Origin: a virus
IMG/VR virus record: IMGVR_UViG_3300017917_002228
Coordinates: 32,001-96,000 of that record
Reading direction: 5' to 3' (one strand)
Length of the DNA stretch: 64,000 nucleotides
Shown: positions 9,418 through 17,676 of the stretch, piece by piece
How positions within the stretch are numbered: position 1 is the stretch's first letter
How the letters are laid out: each line of letters opens with the position of its first letter
Position numbers and translations under genes: made by a program
Notes under the pieces: model-generated
Told to the model about the DNA's origin: nothing
Database searches by the model: none
What the model saw: the letters and a program-made list of their open reading frames with translations, nothing else

Positions 9418-10263
9418 ATGTCTAAAATTAAAGTAGCTGAACTGTTTTACTCACTTCAAGGTGAGGGACAGTACTTAGGAACTCCAAGCATTTTTCTAAG
9501 AGTGTTTGGATGTAACTTTCAATGCGCAGGCTTTTCTATGCCTCGCGGTCAAAAATCAGAAGAACGTTTAGCAGTAGATCCTTCTAAGTATGAACGCTAT
9601 GAGGACCTTCCTCTTGTTCACACAGGGTGTGATTCATATGCTTCTTGGGATGTGCGCTTTAAAAAGCTCTCACCAATGCTTTCTGTTCAGCAGATTGTAG
9701 ATAAGATGGAAGAACTACTACCTGATGGTAAGTTTGGTAATGATAAGCATCTTATTCTTACAGGTGGTGAACCTCTTCTTGGATGGCAGCGTTCATATAT
9801 TGATCTCTTTGAAGAGATTAAAAGTCGTAGAATGAATCTTACTCATATTACGTTTGAGACAAATGGCACTCAGCCTCTTCAAGAAGAACTTTTACAATAT
9901 CTAAACACCGGTCCTTTTGATGTGACGTTTAGTGTATCATCAAAGCTTCCTTCATCTGGTGAAGCTTGGGAAGATGCAATTAAACCGGAAATTATTAATC
10001 AATACTATTGGGCTGGAACGTTAACCTATTTTAAATGGGTTGTATCTTCGCAAGATGATTATGATGATGTTATTCGTGCTGTAGAAGAATACGGCAAGGT
10101 GTGTGATATGGATGATATTCCTGTTTACCTTATGCCTGCTGGTGGTACTACAATGCACTATGATAATAATGAGAAGTGGGTTGCTGATCTTGCTATGAAA
10201 AATGGCTGGCGTTACTCGCCGCGTCTACAAGTTCAGCTTTGGAAGAATATGTGGGGTACGTAA
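9418..10263 (+). CDS. queE: 7-carboxy-7-deazaguanine synthase (radical SAM)
   Basis: ELFYSLQGEG, LRVFGCNFQC...GCDS, LTGGEP, FETNGT, SPRLQ. Confidence 0.92.
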   Translation: MSKIKVAELFYSLQGEGQYLGTPSIFLRVFGCNFQCAGFSMPRGQKSEERLAVDPSKYERYEDLPLVHTGCDSYASWDVRFKKLSPMLSVQQIVDKMEELLPDGKFGNDKHLILTGGEPLLGWQRSYIDLFEEIKSRRMNLTHITFETNGTQPLQEELLQYLNTGPFDVTFSVSSKLPSSGEAWEDAIKPEIINQYYWAGTLTYFKWVVSSQDDYDDVIRAVEEYGKVCDMDDIPVYLMPAGGTTMHYDNNEKWVADLAMKNGWRYSPRLQVQLWKNMWGT

Positions 10264-10808
10264 TGGAATACATTGATACAAATATCACTAAATCTCCAAC
10301 AATGGAAGCAAGAATCCCTCGTACATACAAATACGTTTCAACAAAAGAATATCATGATGCATTTCCGTGCGCATATCGTCAATGGAGAGCTGATAGCCAT
10401 TGTAATTTGATTCATGGCTACAGCTTCTCTATGAAGTTTTATTTTGGTACAGATCATCTAGACGTTCGTAACTGGGTTGCTGATTATGGCGGTTTGAAAG
10501 AACTCAAGAAAGTTCTCGAAGATCAGTTTGATCATACACTACTAGTCGCTCAAGACGATCCTCATTTCGATGTATATAAGTTGCTCGAAGAAAAGAACTT
10601 GGCTAAATTAACGGTATTGCCTAAACTAGGATGTGAAGGGCTAGCTGATATGCTTTACAAATATGTAAACGGAGTCTACATTCCTGATATGTGGGGCCCT
10701 GGTGAAGCTGATCGTTTGTGGTGCTTCAGAGTTGAAGTACGTGAAACGCAGGCTAACATGGCATATCGAGTTGGTCATAGAGAATGGAATGAGGATTTGT
10801 TTGAATGA
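10263..10808 (+). CDS. queD: 6-carboxy-5,6,7,8-tetrahydropterin synthase
   Basis: SHCNLIHGY, DYGGLK, FDHTLL, VRET. Confidence 0.9.
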   Translation: MEYIDTNITKSPTMEARIPRTYKYVSTKEYHDAFPCAYRQWRADSHCNLIHGYSFSMKFYFGTDHLDVRNWVADYGGLKELKKVLEDQFDHTLLVAQDDPHFDVYKLLEEKNLAKLTVLPKLGCEGLADMLYKYVNGVYIPDMWGPGEADRLWCFRVEVRETQANMAYRVGHREWNEDLFE

Positions 10809-11494
10809 GTATATCTGAAAAGATTAAAAAAAGGATTAAAGATGCAGGCGCTCGCTTTCATGCCAATGATAACATTAGCGAATTTATTCGTGATAATGAG
10901 CGTGATGCACTCATTGAGGAACTAGCAACTAAGTTTGACGGGGTACTTCGTTCACTTATTATTGACGTTGATACTGATCCTAACTCAAAAGGAACAGCAA
11001 AGCGTCTTGCTAAGATGTATGTGAACGAGATTATGGAAGGCCGTTATTGGCCTGCTCCAGCTGTTGCAGCATTTCCTAACGATGGTTCTCACGGCACAGA
11101 TCCTTACAAGGGCATGCTCGTAGTACGTGCAGAACTAAAGTCAATGTGCTCACATCATCATCAGCCAGTTACAGGTACTGCATACATCGGTATCATTCCG
11201 AGCGGTAAAGTAATTGGATTGAGCAAATATATTCGTATTGCTCAGCATTGTGCACGTCGTGGTACATTACAAGAAGAACTGTGCGGTGATATTGCACAAG
11301 CTATTATGGAAGCAACTTCTTCTGGTAACGTAGCAGTTTACATTGAAGCTAAGCACGGATGCTGTGAGAATCGTGGTGTAATGGCTTCGAACAGTACTAC
11401 TCAAACTACAGTGCTCCATGGTATGTTCCACGATGCTGGTGTTAAATCAGAGTTCTATTCGAACATTCGACTACAGAAGTATAATTGCAGTTGA
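10805..11494 (+). CDS. folE: GTP cyclohydrolase I
   Basis: SMCSHHHQP, VIGLSK, LQE, HGC..RG. Confidence 0.95.
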   Translation: MSISEKIKKRIKDAGARFHANDNISEFIRDNERDALIEELATKFDGVLRSLIIDVDTDPNSKGTAKRLAKMYVNEIMEGRYWPAPAVAAFPNDGSHGTDPYKGMLVVRAELKSMCSHHHQPVTGTAYIGIIPSGKVIGLSKYIRIAQHCARRGTLQEELCGDIAQAIMEATSSGNVAVYIEAKHGCCENRGVMASNSTTQTTVLHGMFHDAGVKSEFYSNIRLQKYNCS

Positions 11495-11539: not shown

Positions 11540-11752
11540 ATGAAAAACTTGACATCTGAACTGAAAAGCATCTACGGCGAACGTGATCTGAATAAGAAGA
11601 GAGAGCTTGCTAAACGGTTGATCGAAAATTCGCATGCGAAAACGACAACCAAAAATCAAGCTCTCTTTCTTGTTATGAATAAGTTGAGCGTAGATAAGAT
11701 TGACCGTTTTATGACAAATTATGTTTTGTCAGGTGAAGGTATGAAGGTATGA
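11540..11752 (+). CDS. hypothetical protein
   Basis: RBS AGGAG; 70 aa. Confidence 0.7.
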   Translation: MKNLTSELKSIYGERDLNKKRELAKRLIENSHAKTTTKNQALFLVMNKLSVDKIDRFMTNYVLSGEGMKV

Positions 11753-12273
11753 TCGTTAAAAAAATACCTTATGATGATGATGTTAGGAAAGCTATTTGGC
11801 CTTCCTTCAAATTATCTCTAGAAGAAAAGCATGGTAACTCAGGCGCTATCGGTCAACGAGGCGAAGAGAATGCTATTAATTTAATTCAAGAACATTTTCC
11901 TAATATGTTTCAAGTATGCTACGATCATTCAGAAGACGTAGCAGCTCAATACCGTGGTATAGACTTGACTCTTTTTCATCGACAGGGTATTATGACTGTT
12001 GATGTTAAATCAGGTAAGACTGGTCTATACTGGGATAGAGATAACAAATACTGGTATATTACTCTACGTGAAGACTTTTTTAACAAGCGCAAAAACAATA
12101 ATGCAATCATGCATGTAGGGCCTAAGGGTGATCTTTTTGCGCTCTATAATAAATCAGAAATGGAAAAGTTCTTTATTAGTAATGAAGAGCTTTTTATAAA
12201 AGATGAATATGGCTATCGTTTAAGTATGGATGATTGGCCTGACTTTATACAGCATAACCTCCGGAGATATTAA
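11749..12273 (+). CDS. putative PD-(D/E)XK nuclease
   Basis: GQRGEE helix, QYRGID, TVDVK pattern. Confidence 0.55.
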   Translation: MIVKKIPYDDDVRKAIWPSFKLSLEEKHGNSGAIGQRGEENAINLIQEHFPNMFQVCYDHSEDVAAQYRGIDLTLFHRQGIMTVDVKSGKTGLYWDRDNKYWYITLREDFFNKRKNNNAIMHVGPKGDLFALYNKSEMEKFFISNEELFIKDEYGYRLSMDDWPDFIQHNLRRY

Positions 12274-13052
12274 TGAAGATAGCACATGAGGCTCCTAAAT
12301 CTATTTTTGCACACGTCCAGCGCAAGACGGATTACGATTATGCGCTAGTGCATTTGTTTGAGACTGATCCAGTCTACTATCGCTTGTTTAAAGATGCAGT
12401 TATTCAAGGACGTGAAGTTATTCTCGATAACTCTATCTTTGAATTAGGTACAGCGTTTAGTGGCGACAAGTATTACAAGTGGATTAACGAACTTAAACCT
12501 ACTTGGTATATTATTCCAGATGTTCTAGGCGATAGAACAGCTACCATGGAAAGCATGGATAGATGGCTTTCTACTTATAAAGTAGAGGGTGTAAAGTCTA
12601 TTGGTGTTGTTCAAGGCAGCAATTATGATGAGGTTGTTAGATGTTATCTTGAACTAGCTCCTAAGGTTGATAAGGTTGCTATCTCATTTGATTATCAGTT
12701 CTTTGTTTCTGGTATTAATAACAAGTACGTAGACTATATGGCAGGTCGTATTAGTCTTATTAAACGTCTTTTAGATGAAAAAATTATTGATGAGAATAAA
12801 CCTCATCATCTACTCGGTTGCGGTCTACCTCAAGAGTTTCAATTTTATCGTGATATGAAATATACATTTATCGATAGCATTGATACATCTAATCCAGTTG
12901 TTCACGGATTAAATCGTATTCGTTATACACCAACAGGCTTGGCAGATAAAGTTCCTACAAAGCTTATTGAATATATGGACGAAGAAGTAACTAAAGATCA
13001 ACTTAAAGATATTGATTACAACATCGCAATGTTTAGAGAATTTTGCAAATGA
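12273..13052 (+). CDS. dpdA: TGT-fold 7-deazaguanine insertion enzyme (DpdA, probably DpdA3-like)
   Basis: ILDNSIFE, IPDV, GVVQG, HLLG, SIDTS align with TGT catalytic motifs; sits inside the preQ0/preQ1 cluster. Confidence 0.8.
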   Translation: MKIAHEAPKSIFAHVQRKTDYDYALVHLFETDPVYYRLFKDAVIQGREVILDNSIFELGTAFSGDKYYKWINELKPTWYIIPDVLGDRTATMESMDRWLSTYKVEGVKSIGVVQGSNYDEVVRCYLELAPKVDKVAISFDYQFFVSGINNKYVDYMAGRISLIKRLLDEKIIDENKPHHLLGCGLPQEFQFYRDMKYTFIDSIDTSNPVVHGLNRIRYTPTGLADKVPTKLIEYMDEEVTKDQLKDIDYNIAMFREFCK

Positions 13053-13573
13053 AATGGATAGCATTATTCAGCCAAACAGGAAGTGAGATTAACCGTATTG
13101 CAGAAGCATTAGGCCGTTGGCCTGACGCAGTTTTGACTAATAATCGCGATCTTAACGACTGGGAAGATTATATAGATCTTACCGAAACCTCTGTGTTTAT
13201 TTCTAATACAGAAGGTATTAATAATGCACTCCGTAAAGCAGATCGTGCATTTGTAACGCTACACGGATATCTTCGTATTATACCAGCCGATATTTGTAAA
13301 CGTCATAAAATATATAACGGGCACCCTGCTCTTATTAGTGAGTATCCAGAACTAAAAGGTAAAGATCCTCAAGAGCGAGTCTGGTTAGCAGGTAAGGAAA
13401 TTTATCCTAATATAGGTTCTGTAGTACATGAGTGTACACCAGAGCTTGATGGTGGTAAGATTATTAGTGTTGCGATGGATTTTAATCATTGCAATACTAA
13501 GCAAGAGTTGTATAATAAGCTTAAAGAGACTTCTCTCAAAGCTTGGACTTTCTTTCTGGAGACGCGTCTATGA
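13049..13573 (+). CDS. PurN-like formyltransferase (DpdN-like preQ1 formyltransferase)
   Basis: ALFSQTGS, LHGYLRII, YNGHPAL, G.VVH..T.ELDGGKII formyltransferase motifs. Confidence 0.8.
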   Translation: MKWIALFSQTGSEINRIAEALGRWPDAVLTNNRDLNDWEDYIDLTETSVFISNTEGINNALRKADRAFVTLHGYLRIIPADICKRHKIYNGHPALISEYPELKGKDPQERVWLAGKEIYPNIGSVVHECTPELDGGKIISVAMDFNHCNTKQELYNKLKETSLKAWTFFLETRL

Positions 13574-13815
13574 CTAAGAATGCTATTCGTCCTTCTCATT
13601 ATAAGGCAGACGGCTGTAAGTATGAGTGTATTGAAGTAATTGAAGAGTTGTGCGGTCTGTCTAATAATGATCGTTTTACTGATTATAATCGCTTTCAGGC
13701 ATTTAAGTACGTATGGCGTGCTGGTATGAAAGATCCTGTGTTGCAGGATTTAAAGAAGGCTAAACAGTTTATTGAATTTGCTATTGCTTACGAGGAAAAT
13801 AAAAATGTCAAGTGA
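13570..13815 (+). CDS. DUF3310 protein (T7 gp1.7 nucleotide kinase-related)
   Basis: PSHY...ECIEVI...KYVWRAG.K...QDLKKA. Confidence 0.85.
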   Translation: MTKNAIRPSHYKADGCKYECIEVIEELCGLSNNDRFTDYNRFQAFKYVWRAGMKDPVLQDLKKAKQFIEFAIAYEENKNVK

Positions 13816-14728
13816 TATTATTAATCAACTAGCCAGCGTACATCTAGGTAAAGCGGGAGATGGTAGCGTTGTCAAACCGTATGTTACTCCTGATAATATT
13901 GATCCTTCTCTTCTTGTGCCTGTGCCTCGCCATCTTAATCGTACCGGGTACGGTATTGAAGACAATAATCTACCTTTTATTGGGTATGATACTTGGAACT
14001 GCTATGAGTTTAGTACTTTAACAAATAATGGCTTCCCAGTATCCGGTGTCATTCGAATTGTATATTCTTCTTATCAACCAAATATTGTTGAGTCAAAGTC
14101 GCTTAAGCTTTATTTGAACTCGTTCAATATGCATAAGAGTGGCACTACTATTCAAGACGTTATTGAGTTTGTAGAAGACCAGATTGAAGTAGATCTTCAG
14201 GGTATTGGTATTAGTGCATCAGCATGCTTTCATGATGAGACTGCAATCGTCACTCAACCTATTCAGGGTGACTTTTTGACTCTCGAAAACTTCTGCGACG
14301 TTGAGTCTATGACGTTTGACCACTATAATGAAGATCCGGCTATTCTTGAAGTAATTGATAATCCAGACTACTATGATAGTTGGAAGTCGCATTCATTGCG
14401 TTCAAACTGTCGTGTAACTAATCAGCCGGACTGGGGTGATGTTTATATTCATATTGGTGGTGATAAGACAGTAACTCCTGAATCACTCTTGCAGTACATT
14501 GTATCGATGCGTAAAGAGAATCACTTCCACGAAGAAATTTGTGAGTGTATCTACAAGCGTCTTCTCGATACTTTGAATCCAGAAGAGCTTATGGTTGCAT
14601 GTCTCTATACTCGTCGTGGTGGTATCGATATTAATCCTGTACGTGCAAAGAGTAACAGCACTTTGTTTAAGTATGCAGGTAATCTTATTCAACCAGACTT
14701 CCTTAATTATAAGACAATGAGACAATAA
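13805..14728 (+). CDS. queF: NADPH-dependent 7-cyano-7-deazaguanine reductase (bimodular)
   Basis: ESKSLKLYLNS, SNCRVTNQPDWG, FHEEICE, YTRRGGIDINP. Confidence 0.93.
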   Translation: MSSDIINQLASVHLGKAGDGSVVKPYVTPDNIDPSLLVPVPRHLNRTGYGIEDNNLPFIGYDTWNCYEFSTLTNNGFPVSGVIRIVYSSYQPNIVESKSLKLYLNSFNMHKSGTTIQDVIEFVEDQIEVDLQGIGISASACFHDETAIVTQPIQGDFLTLENFCDVESMTFDHYNEDPAILEVIDNPDYYDSWKSHSLRSNCRVTNQPDWGDVYIHIGGDKTVTPESLLQYIVSMRKENHFHEEICECIYKRLLDTLNPEELMVACLYTRRGGIDINPVRAKSNSTLFKYAGNLIQPDFLNYKTMRQ

Positions 14729-15477
14729 TGAATCTACAACAAGCGCTTGATAAACTTCCCAACACTGATCAGAACGTAGTATCGGTCCTCTCCGGAGGAC
14801 TCGACTCTACTATTATGACTTACATTCTTGTCAAGAAATATGGCAAGGATAGAGTTTTTGCTTTATCATACGACTATGGACAGAAGCAAAAGATTGAATT
14901 AGATATGGCTCGTCGTACTTGTATGTACCTCGGCATTAGTCATAAAATTCTCGATCTAGGTATTTTAGGTGAGATAGTAAAAAATGTTTCTGCTAACATT
15001 AATGGTACTGATGTCGCGATGCCTACCATTAGAGACGTTCTAGGTGATCCTCAACCGAAAACCTATGTACCGTTTCGTAATATGATCTTGAATGCTCTTG
15101 CATTCTCTTATGCAGAAGCAAATAAAGCATCTCATGTTTTTACCGGTCTTCAAGTTCACGATGAGTATGGCTACTGGGATACTACTCAGAAGTTTGTAGA
15201 TGCAATGAATGCAGTTGCTGATCAAAACCGTACTCATAAAGTTAAGATGGAAGCACCTTTTAGTCTACTATCTAAGTATGACGAATTAAAGATTGCTAAT
15301 GAACTAGGTGGAGTTAAATTAGAATATACTCTAACATGTTATAATCCGGATGAACAGGGTCGTTCATGTGGTATGTGTCCATCATGTTCAGAACGTATTC
15401 AGAACTTTATTAAAGCTGGTATGCGCGACCCGATTCCATATTCTATAGGTATTGAATGGGAAAGGTTTGTTAAGTAA
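14728..15477 (+). CDS. queC: 7-cyano-7-deazaguanine synthase
   Basis: SGGLDST, YGQK, TYVPFRN, TCY...CGMCPSC. Confidence 0.95.
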   Translation: MNLQQALDKLPNTDQNVVSVLSGGLDSTIMTYILVKKYGKDRVFALSYDYGQKQKIELDMARRTCMYLGISHKILDLGILGEIVKNVSANINGTDVAMPTIRDVLGDPQPKTYVPFRNMILNALAFSYAEANKASHVFTGLQVHDEYGYWDTTQKFVDAMNAVADQNRTHKVKMEAPFSLLSKYDELKIANELGGVKLEYTLTCYNPDEQGRSCGMCPSCSERIQNFIKAGMRDPIPYSIGIEWERFVK

Positions 15478-16109
15478 TGTGTTCTATCACAGGGTCATTC
15501 TCTAAAGAAGTTGTAGCTGCGCTTGCGCAGCTCAACGCATATCGTGGTCAGCATTCACACTCAGTTTACGTCTTTGAACGTTTTACAAATAGAGTGTTGT
15601 ATGCGCATCGCGATCTAGGCGAACTTAATTTGGAAGATCATAATCTTCCAGATGGTTATATTGTAGTGCATCAACAAGCACCCACTACTGACAATAAGGA
15701 TGAGTCTTCGATTCATCCAGCTCAGATTAACGAAAACCTTTTGTGGCATAATGGTATCGTAAAAGCAGAAGAGATTAAAAATCTACAGAGTGAGTTAGAG
15801 TCTACTATTTCATGGGATACTAAACTAATTCTCCTCAAACTTATGCTATATAATTCAGTAAAGGACATTGATGGTACCTTTAGCTGTTTATGGTATGATG
15901 GAACTAATATGTTCCTATTTCGTAATGAGATTAGTCCAATGTTTATTGACGCGGACGGAAACATTTCTTCTACAAAGTTTCCAGGCTCTGAGCCTATCGA
16001 TCCAAACTTCCTCTGGATTTTTAACCCATCCTATCCTACACTAACAGAATACTTGGAAGAATTTAACACAGTTGAGAACCCTTATTTTTTTGCGGATGAA
16101 CAGAAATGA
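15477..16109 (+). CDS. stand-alone class II (Ntn) glutamine amidotransferase
   Basis: N-terminal MC, RG, HQQAPT, HP, HNG, DT, GTFS. Confidence 0.85.
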   Translation: MCSITGSFSKEVVAALAQLNAYRGQHSHSVYVFERFTNRVLYAHRDLGELNLEDHNLPDGYIVVHQQAPTTDNKDESSIHPAQINENLLWHNGIVKAEEIKNLQSELESTISWDTKLILLKLMLYNSVKDIDGTFSCLWYDGTNMFLFRNEISPMFIDADGNISSTKFPGSEPIDPNFLWIFNPSYPTLTEYLEEFNTVENPYFFADEQK

Positions 16110-16603
16110 TGTTGCATATTATGTCCGGTGAAACTGGATCTACACTTACTGAAGTACAAGAAGAAGATATTCAGCCTAACGCAGTTGATCTTCGTGTTGC
16201 TAAGATCTTTAAAATTAAAGAAGAAGATTTTATTATTGATAATGAAACAAAAACTCATCGTGGTTCAGAAGAGATTCATCCATACCCTTCAGGTATGTGG
16301 TATCTTAAACCAGGTACCTATGAGATTGTGATGGAGAATATTATCCATGTCGGTGAAGACGAAGCTGGTTGGGTTATTACACGATCCACTCTTAATCGTA
16401 ATGGTGTGTTTATTACTTCTGGTCTTTATGATAGTGGTTATCATGGCGTAATGGCTGGCGCTATGCATGTGACTACTGGACCGATGTGGATTAAAAAAGG
16501 AACTCGAGTAGGTCAGTTCCTTCTCTTTAAGTCACAAGCACTAAAGAAGTATGATGGTGATTATGGTATCGGCAAAGCGCACGATCAAAAGTACGGAGTA
16601 TAA
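16106..16603 (+). CDS. trimeric dUTPase / dCTP deaminase family protein
   Basis: QPNAVDLR, RSTLNR, GLYDSGYHG, RVGQ, YDGDY. Confidence 0.85.
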   Translation: MMLHIMSGETGSTLTEVQEEDIQPNAVDLRVAKIFKIKEEDFIIDNETKTHRGSEEIHPYPSGMWYLKPGTYEIVMENIIHVGEDEAGWVITRSTLNRNGVFITSGLYDSGYHGVMAGAMHVTTGPMWIKKGTRVGQFLLFKSQALKKYDGDYGIGKAHDQKYGV

Positions 16604-16605
16604 TT

Positions 16606-17676
16606 ATGGAAATTAAAATTGATATTGACTCGCTGCGTAAGCGTAAGTTGTTTGTTGCAACACCAATGTATGGTGGTAACTGCAACGGTATGTATACCCG
16701 CTCACTTTGTGATTTGACTGCACTTTGTGTTCGCTATGGTATTGAGATTCGTTCCTACTTTTTGTTTAACGAATCACTCATTACACGCGCACGCAACTAC
16801 TGCGTAGATGAGTTCCTTCGTAGTGATGCAGAACATCTCTTGTTTATCGACTCTGATATTGGATTCAATCCACAAGACGTTATTGCGATGATGGCATTAC
16901 AGACTCCGGAATCTGAATATGATGTTATTGCAGGCCCTTATCCTAAGAAGTGTATCACTTGGGAAAAGATTAAAGCAGCAATTGACAAAGGTGTTGCAGA
17001 TCAAAACCCAAATGTTCTAGAAGACTTTGTCGGTGACTTTGTTTTTAATCCTGCAATGGAACCTGGTGAGACTTCTAAAACAATTCAGCTTGATCAGCCA
17101 GCAGAAGTTCTAGAAGCTGGTACTGGCTTTATGATGATTCGTCGTAAGACATTTGAAAAGTATCTTGCTGCTTATCCTGAAATTCAGTATCGTCCTGATC
17201 ACGTCCGTACAGAAGCATTTGACGGGTCGCGTGAGATCGGAATGTATTTCCAGGCAGAAGTCGATAAGTATAGTCCTGAAAAGGACTATGAAGAAATGCT
17301 TCGTCGTATTCAGAATGGCGGTACAGTTACTGCTAATGAAGCAGCGCTTGCTATTAAGTCAACACGTGATAAGATTCAAGCTTCTACTAAGCGTTATCTT
17401 TCAGAAGATTATCTTTTCTGTCAGAACGTTCGTAAGATGGGTGGTAAGGTCTGGTTGTGTCCGTGGATGCATCTACAGCATGCTGGTACCTACGTCTTTG
17501 CTGGCAAGCTTGCAGCTCTTGCAGCAGTTGGTGCTTCTGCAACAGCAGATGCAGACTTGATTAAGAAGCATCGTGATGCTGGCAGAACACCGCATCCAGC
17601 TATTGCAATACCTAAACCGGTTAAACCAGTAGCACCAAGCTCAGAGCTCTTGAAGAAGTTTAAGACTGTTAAGTGA
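16606..17676 (+). CDS. GT-A fold glycosyltransferase-like protein
   Basis: ATPMYGG, ESLITRARN, FIDSD (DxD), GTGFMMI, SEDYLFC. Confidence 0.75.
   Translation: MEIKIDIDSLRKRKLFVATPMYGGNCNGMYTRSLCDLTALCVRYGIEIRSYFLFNESLITRARNYCVDEFLRSDAEHLLFIDSDIGFNPQDVIAMMALQTPESEYDVIAGPYPKKCITWEKIKAAIDKGVADQNPNVLEDFVGDFVFNPAMEPGETSKTIQLDQPAEVLEAGTGFMMIRRKTFEKYLAAYPEIQYRPDHVRTEAFDGSREIGMYFQAEVDKYSPEKDYEEMLRRIQNGGTVTANEAALAIKSTRDKIQASTKRYLSEDYLFCQNVRKMGGKVWLCPWMHLQHAGTYVFAGKLAALAAVGASATADADLIKKHRDAGRTPHPAIAIPKPVKPVAPSSELLKKFKTVK

Follow-up and report, generated by a model that had tools for sequence, protein, structure and literature searches.

The 64,000-nt window analyzed here comes from IMG/VR record IMGVR_UViG_3300017917_002228, a complete virus genome of 160,495 bp with direct terminal repeats. 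It carries on its plus strand a 7-deazaguanine DNA-modification cluster in which queC (14728..15477), encoding a 249-amino acid (aa) preQ0 (7-cyano-7-deazaguanine) synthase (PF06508, E 1e-53), is followed directly by a gene designated gat (15477..16109; PHROG 12378), predicted to encode a stand-alone class II, or N-terminal nucleophile (Ntn), glutaminase of 210 aa. Immediately upstream is queF (13805..14728), for a bimodular NADPH-dependent preQ0 reductase (PF14819 and PF14489), preceded by genes for a DpdA3-type DNA guanine transglycosylase (dpdA; 12273..13052; PHROG 19058) and a PurN-like, DpdN-like formyltransferase (13049..13573; PF00551, E 8e-12). The part of the pathway that forms 7-carboxy-7-deazaguanine (CDG) is encoded by queE, queD and folE at 9418..11494 (Pfam Radical_SAM/Fer4_12, PTPS and GTP_cyclohydroI). 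Gat, which has so far gone without a name, accompanies QueC widely and only in phages, and a role as the ammonia-donor subunit of a glutamine-dependent preQ0 synthase is proposed for it below.

The queC stop codon TAA (15475-15477) shares its final A with the ATG of gat, which gives a TAATG stop/start overlap (15473..15479). A preliminary description of this DNA had reported a 210-aa Ntn reading frame starting at the queC stop in TAATG, with QueF and a formyltransferase nearby; the first point is confirmed from the sequence and the second by Pfam matches just upstream. The coupling of queC to gat is not a chance arrangement, because the identical junction recurs in dozens of independent viral contigs.

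Gat begins with MCS, placing Cys2 directly after the initiator Met, and carries the motifs YRG, WHNGI and WDT. The nucleophile Cys is present in 258/258 ungapped relatives. The RG motif R23-G24, the oxyanion-hole residues N92-G93 and D114, the Asp for the alpha-amino group of the substrate, align to GlmS R26-G27, N98-G99 and D123, each being conserved in at least 259 of 260 relatives; H91 and W113 are kept in at least 258 of 260, the FRN motif in about 98-100%, and Thr70 (GlmS T76) is likewise retained. The Pfam score of Gat is below threshold (GATase_7, 15.1 bits versus a cut-off of 25; E 0.024), although PF13522 or PF13537 is matched by some relatives; NCBIfam offers no Gat model, and a phmmer search of the single sequence against PDB sequences was not significant (E 1.4). 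We call Gat a class II amidotransferase despite Pfam because family profile, structural match and residue conservation agree. A profile built from 26 relatives could be aligned to the glutaminase domain of GlmS (E 1e-4), starting at Cys1, running past HNG and reaching as far as the DT motif. The AlphaFold2 model (predicted local distance difference test score 91, predicted template modeling score 0.88) has the alpha-beta-beta-alpha fold of Ntn hydrolases, and its best Foldseek matches were GlmS structures 1xff and 1jxa (E 4e-9), with EgtC and the glutaminase domains of PurF, GFAT and AsnS also matched (range E 4e-9 to 1e-6). As judged from sequence and model, Gat looks like an active Ntn amidohydrolase with the class II glutaminase fold, and departs from the canonical enzymes at one family-specific position of the predicted substrate pocket.

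The Gat family comprises 285 clusters at 90% identity, and 297 clusters at 50% identity were retrieved at E <1e-30, almost all members being free-standing proteins of 200-230 aa. It occurs on 301 IMG/VR contigs, and the corresponding ESM Atlas cluster (n=577) is 98% viral. Isolates with Gat include KVP40, nt-1, VH7D, phi-Grn1, phi-ST2 and other KVP40-like Vibrio phages as well as Pseudomonas phage pf16 and Vibrio phage 2.275.O, and in isolates gat always directly follows queC. A scan of 185,579 prokaryote species genomes found Gat on just five short contigs of metagenome-assembled genomes (MAGs), four of which carry other 7-deazaguanine genes of the same cluster type, the fifth being a 1.7-kb fragment that holds only gat and a dcd-like gene; on these numbers, a cellular origin or cellular QueC partner of Gat was dropped. 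One of the MAG contigs, Flavobacterium NZ_JAQTPQ010000119.1 (L094), is the sole locus at which queC does not precede gat, its order being an AAA_33 kinase-like gene, gat, queF, genes for unknown proteins of 434 and 147 aa, queE and queD.

Gene context was scored at 83 loci, 70 of them with at least 900 nt and 42 with at least 5 kb upstream of gat. In all 70 viral loci of the first group queC lies upstream of gat, adjoining it in most, and a lack of linkage between Gat homologs and que genes, which the preliminary description had named as a refuting result, was therefore not observed. The junction is a one-base overlap (TAATG or TGATG) in 41 loci, an overlap of 8-49 nt in 15 and a gap of 2-53 nt in 11, with one gene inserted between queC and gat in a further 13. 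Judged from their N-terminal sequence, the inserts include a YhhQ-like membrane protein, HAD-type nucleotidase-like proteins (DMDGV motif) and a GIY-YIG-like protein (L008, L032 at about 9420-10000, L053, L054, L060, L063, L064 and L066).

The partner of Gat is itself a distinct form of QueC. The canonical signature consists of SGGxDS, YxQxHxxE, VPxRN, YPDC and zinc cysteines; YxQxHxxE and YPDC sit at the opening of the substrate pocket, and the nitrogen donor required by the enzyme is ammonia (Libby 2026, PMC13329287). The window QueC scores 171.4 bits against TIGR00364 (equivalog cut-off 150.3) and has SGGLDS, VPFRN, the zinc cysteines (C-x9-C-x2-C-x2-C) and the essential Tyr residues, with YGQKQKIE (His to Gln) and YWDT in place of YxQxHxxE and YPDC. 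Its identity is 59-65% to QueCs of Gat-bearing Vibrio phages but does not exceed 33% to any other phage QueC. The 25 Gat-linked QueCs sampled for a maximum-likelihood tree form one clade (98/99 support), which excludes free QueCs, CP220 QueC* and the Gat-QueC fusion of Enterobacteria phage 9g. Motifs were compared among 62 Gat-linked, eight free and two fused QueCs, the free and fused samples being small. YGQKQxxE is present in 62/62 distinct Gat-linked proteins, along with YWDT in 59, YHDT in two and YWDC in one. Free phage QueCs have QxH in 7/8 and YPDC or FPDC in all eight, and fused Gat-QueC-type proteins (9g and PhiXhv-15) have YGCRAxTxE and xDN. The Gat-linked and fused forms are thus both without the same His and Cys, each changed differently, which suggests that these two residues of the canonical motifs may allow QueC to work with free ammonia and that a rebuilt pocket opening may go with the docking of a glutaminase.

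BSTP10, annotated as 'GATase/QueC', is an ordinary free QueC of 223 aa. PhiXhv-15, a 507-aa fusion whose gene lies next to sugar-modifying genes, is maybe no true QueC, and it serves here solely as a second example of the fused signature. In the alignment, the free QueCs of immuto (L089:1498-2379) and Pseudomonas virus Pa-oumiga (L100) keep YGQ[KR]H and YPDC and are without the C-terminal zinc cysteine motif.

The preliminary description had treated the presence of Gat beside QueF as anomalous. That premise is wrong, as QueF-QueC-Gat is the commonest arrangement (34/42 loci), with queF upstream of queC and usually directly adjacent. DpdA3, a formyltransferase and QueF accompany queC-gat in 20 of the 42 loci, as in the window; QueF is present without DpdA3 and formyltransferase in 14; a more distant DpdA3-like gene occurs without QueF in seven; and one locus has neither. 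Counted by gene, Gat is found without a formyltransferase in 22/42 loci and without QueF in 8/42. The QueC tree nests QueF-less loci among QueF-bearing ones (L005 with L056, L043 with L012). Gat tracks QueC, not QueF or the formyltransferase, so that the survey of gat, queF and dpdN co-occurrence that had been suggested for this locus shows Gat to be independent of both other genes and linked to queC.

KVP40.0125 and its orthologs in nt-1, VH7D, phi-Grn1 and phi-ST2 (Schizotequatrovirus), pf16 gp77 and NVP2275O_473 of 2.275.O belong to the same family as the window Gat (32-40% identity, PHROG 12378) and are annotated 'hypothetical protein' or 'nucleophile aminohydrolase'. At these loci gat immediately follows queC, and queC is preceded by queF; nt-1 is the exception, with ArcS2 in place of QueF. 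These phages combine DpdA2 with DpdM or ArcS2, whereas the window phage combines DpdA3 with a DpdN-like formyltransferase.

The genes from dpdA to the dcd-like gene form one coupled string. A gene for a 174-aa NERD/nuclease-related protein (11749-12273; plus strand, like the other window genes given with coordinates; PF08378, E 1e-4) lies between folE and dpdA, and is found again in a minority of related loci (L005, L006, L061, L062 and L067). A small DUF3310-type open reading frame (13570-13815) lies between the formyltransferase gene and queF, wedged in by ATGA overlaps; Gat relative P0268 bears a C-terminal DUF3310 domain. The junctions of dpdA with the formyltransferase gene and of the latter with the DUF3310-type frame are both ATGA, the DUF3310-type frame overlaps queF, and the queF stop overlaps the queC ATG as TAATG. 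With its start read as the ATG at 13805, the QueF translation shows the motif ESKSLKLY and the cysteine of NCRVTNQPDWG. Downstream, a dCTP-deaminase/dUTPase-fold gene (16106..16603; PF22769, E 5e-17), which is joined to gat by ATGA, follows gat in about half of related loci, making it frequent but not constant. The next gene encodes a GT-A-like protein of 356 aa (16606-17676; PHROG 1574; weak Pfam matches to Anp1 and Glyco_transf_21); nearly all related loci have it on the downstream side of gat, those without the dcd-like gene included, and it may be a conserved gp45 neighbor rather than a member of the modification pathway. Promoter-like and terminator-like sites across 9-18 kb occurred at chance frequency only. 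The clamp loader of the virus is nearest to those of Methylophilales phage Melnitz, Stenotrophomonas phage DLP_6 and cyanomyoviruses, relatives that mark the virus as an aquatic T4-like myovirus. When the cluster was searched at the nucleotide level, 50,697 phage records gave no match, and relatives emerged at the protein level only.

The end product of the pathway can be predicted from the genes in the window. The window DpdA is 51.5% identical to the DpdA of Flavobacterium phage immuto, 41% to that of Campylobacter phage CP220 and 25% to that of Cellulophaga phage phiST. The formyltransferase is 41% identical to immuto DpdN, and immuto phages provided its sole matches among the 50,697 phage records. 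Every G of immuto is the deoxynucleoside of formyl-preQ1 (fdPreQ1; Cui 2023, PMC10516641), preQ1 being the 7-aminomethyl product of QueF, and CP220 and phiST, which are related to immuto, are DpdA3 phages in which all guanines are replaced. The gene set for fdPreQ1 is complete in the window, with homologs of DpdA3, DpdN and QueF in addition to FolE, QueD, QueE and QueC. Because the closest isolate homologs of both its DpdA and its formyltransferase are those of immuto, high-level formyl-preQ1 is the likely modification in the window phage, and a large demand for preQ0 would therefore be expected. Immuto differs from the window phage in that its QueC gene sits elsewhere in the genome, keeps YGQKH and YPDC and has no Gat, and in that immuto is not T4-like. 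Neither a second QueC nor an ArcS was found in the complete genome of the window phage, so QueF here depends on the Gat-linked QueC for its preQ0.

We consider it reasonably probable that Gat serves QueC as a dedicated ammonia donor, a subunit through which preQ0 synthase becomes glutamine-dependent, and that it acts upstream of whichever branch follows. This reading, one of three offered in the preliminary description, is favored because Gat follows queC in 70/70 loci whatever the branch, and does so with a QueC of distinct clade and signature. It is hypothesized that Cys2 of Gat, once exposed by removal of Met, hydrolyzes glutamine and that the partner QueC receives the resulting ammonia, using it with ATP to convert CDG to the amide 7-amido-7-deazaguanine (ADG) and then to the nitrile preQ0. 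Translational coupling would provide the two polypeptides in fixed proportion. From fold, residues and linkage we infer a glutaminase activity of Gat, a physical QueC-Gat complex, transfer of ammonia within it and preQ0 as its product. The pair would act upstream of the tailoring branch and independently of its type; in the window phage, preQ0 would be reduced to preQ1 by QueF, inserted into DNA by DpdA3 and probably converted to formyl-preQ1 by the DpdN-like formyltransferase.

By analogy, the proposed logic is that of asparagine synthetase B, in which a class II glutaminase feeds a PP-loop synthetase that adenylates a carboxylate, and comparable arrangements are glutamine-dependent NAD+ synthetase and GMP synthase, including its split archaeal form. 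The window QueC, a distant relative of the synthetase domain of asparagine synthetase B, gives weak Pfam/NCBIfam matches to Asn_synthase, NAD_synthase and GuaA. The QueC-Gat pair would nevertheless stand outside these families, as its acceptor would be CDG, its product would go on to a nitrile and its subunits are separate. The subunits of archaeal GMP synthase are also separate, and this enzyme uses a class I glutaminase (Libby 2026, PMC13329287).

Several observations weigh against a role for Gat as ammonia donor. In characterized class II amidotransferases, an Arg binds the alpha-carboxylate of glutamine (R73 in GlmS and PurF, R49 in AsnB). At the position of GlmS R73, Gat has Gln67 (259/260 relatives), and its substrate may therefore not be free glutamine. 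One of the closest structural matches of Gat is EgtC, a stand-alone enzyme of this fold in which no ammonia is transferred. A natural QueC-Gat fusion, which would be direct evidence of contact, was found neither among 150 Gat representatives nor in a search for proteins longer than 368 aa; of three longer Gat representatives, two have C-terminal extensions lacking a Pfam match and one has DUF3310. MAG contig L094 has gat next to queF, and the 1.2 kb of sequence that it offers upstream of gat contains no queC. KVP40-like phages have low modification levels and no obvious need for extra ammonia.

A first alternative is a split archaeosine synthase, in which QueC and Gat would turn CDG or preQ0 into the amidine archaeosine (G+), as the 9g fusion does. 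The sole characterized pairing of QueC with a class II amidotransferase is indeed fused Gat-QueC, the product of which is deoxyarchaeosine (dG+; Hutinet 2019, PMC6884629). The window pair resembles this fusion (9g gp6; also in Crenarchaeota) in joining a class II Ntn amidotransferase to a PP-loop QueC within a phage 7-deazaguanine DNA-modification cluster, and in a QueC part that has lost both the YxQxHxxE His and the YPDC Cys. Eight of the 42 loci are without QueF or another tailoring gene, and nt-1, which carries the pair, has trace dG+. There are also differences. The 9g protein is a single polypeptide with Gat N-terminal and QueC C-terminal, whereas the window has two open reading frames with queC first; 9g has YGCRA and YPDN, whereas the window QueC has YGQKQ and YWDT, shares no more than 27% identity with the QueC part of 9g and falls in another clade, and its pair is usually beside QueF. 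Comparison of Gat with the Gat domain of 9g, a single fused sequence rather than a profile, detected no specific homology (BLASTP E 0.14; hhalign probability 3%), and only a short PTT...HNG stretch is common to the two. Moreover, queF lies upstream of queC in 34/42 loci, QueF requires the nitrile, and the window genome offers no second QueC to make it.

The nucleoside data point the same way. The DNA of phi-Grn1 and phi-ST2, relatives that carry the pair, contains dPreQ1 (the deoxynucleoside of preQ1) and its methylated counterpart mdPreQ1, with zero dG+, dPreQ0 and dADG (Cui 2023, PMC10516641, Table 1). The trace dG+ of nt-1 was reproduced in E. coli by nt-1 ArcS2, which accounts for it (Cui 2023, PMC10516641, Table 3). 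These data weigh against a split archaeosine synthase, though with less force for QueF-less phages. A split archaeosine synthase, which predicts dG+ alone in QueF-less relatives or beside formyl-preQ1 in the window phage, is in our view unlikely. The suggestion in the preliminary description that the phage makes two modified bases, including G+, is accordingly disfavored in view of the single QueC, the lack of an ArcS, the need of QueF for preQ0, the zero dG+ of Gat-bearing phages (PMC10516641) and the lack of detectable homology to the 9g Gat. There is an equally small chance that ammonia tunneled into the remodeled QueC pocket diverts part or all of the adenylated amide to the amidine G+, or that the reaction stops at ADG. 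If so, QueF-less phages would carry dG+ or dADG, and phages like the window phage would carry a second deazaguanine beside formyl-preQ1.

It is also improbable that Gat is an Ntn amidohydrolase acting on another substrate, such as an intermediate or by-product amide, with no donation of ammonia and with a QueC pocket that takes a different nucleophile. Such an activity could explain Gln67 in place of the carboxylate-binding Arg in 259/260 members and the altered pocket-opening motifs of the linked QueC; EgtC, a close structural match, acts on a gamma-glutamyl amide, and QueC homologs that ligate amino acids rather than ammonia to CDG are known (RoyL; bioRxiv 10.64898/2026.04.15.718813). However, QueF, DpdA and the dPreQ1 measured in relatives all call for ordinary preQ0, for which this QueC is the only phage source, the same QueC passes the TIGR00364 cut-off and retains the zinc site, SGGxDS, VPxRN and the essential Tyr residues, and the remaining glutamine-binding residues of Gat are all conserved. 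A general auxiliary metabolic gene, whose product would increase ammonia or glutamate during infection without any specific tie to QueC, would fit a free-standing Gat with neither fusion nor demonstrated contact, but would not be expected to show linkage to queC, stop/start overlaps and co-variation with a dedicated QueC subfamily, and we regard it as very unlikely. Late amidation of preQ1, formyl-preQ1 (the third option of the preliminary description) or modified DNA to a new base is most unlikely, even though Gat shares a coupled gene string with the formyltransferase and QueF, because the formyltransferase is missing from 22 of the 42 well-covered Gat loci and QueF from eight, the constant neighbor is queC and no tailoring gene, a lone glutaminase has no acceptor-activating domain, and immuto phages reach complete fdPreQ1 without Gat.

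Free-standing Gat is not mentioned in the literature that we could search, most subscription journals being outside its scope. Fused Gat-QueC alone is discussed in Hutinet 2019 (PMC6884629), Cui 2023 (PMC10516641) and the iggy paper, the Gat proteins of KVP40 and pf16 are not listed in the gene table of Hutinet 2019 (PMC6884629, Supplementary Data 1), and neither Libby 2026 (PMC13329287) nor a 2026 genome-mining preprint mentions a class II amidotransferase partner of QueC. The same Supplementary Data 1 gives KVP40 QueC as NP_899504, while the QueC beside QueF and Gat is NP_899372 (KVP40.0124), reflecting either a second QueC-like gene in KVP40 or a slip in the table.

Charts of the phage 7-deazaguanine pathway list FolE, QueD, QueE, QueC, QueF, DpdA and tailoring enzymes, and Gat is missing from them, although QueC has Gat beside it in hundreds of T4-like and jumbo phages from aquatic habitats, the laboratory phages KVP40, nt-1 and VH7D among them. 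Annotators should not take a separate Gat beside QueC to mean 'Gat-QueC, therefore archaeosine'. If Gat is the ammonia donor proposed here, the amidotransferase/PP-loop family would gain a split class II member, two residues of the QueC pocket would be tied to ammonia entry, and glutamine-dependent synthesis of preQ0 would explain how these phages sustain a high deazaguanine flux when free ammonia is scarce.

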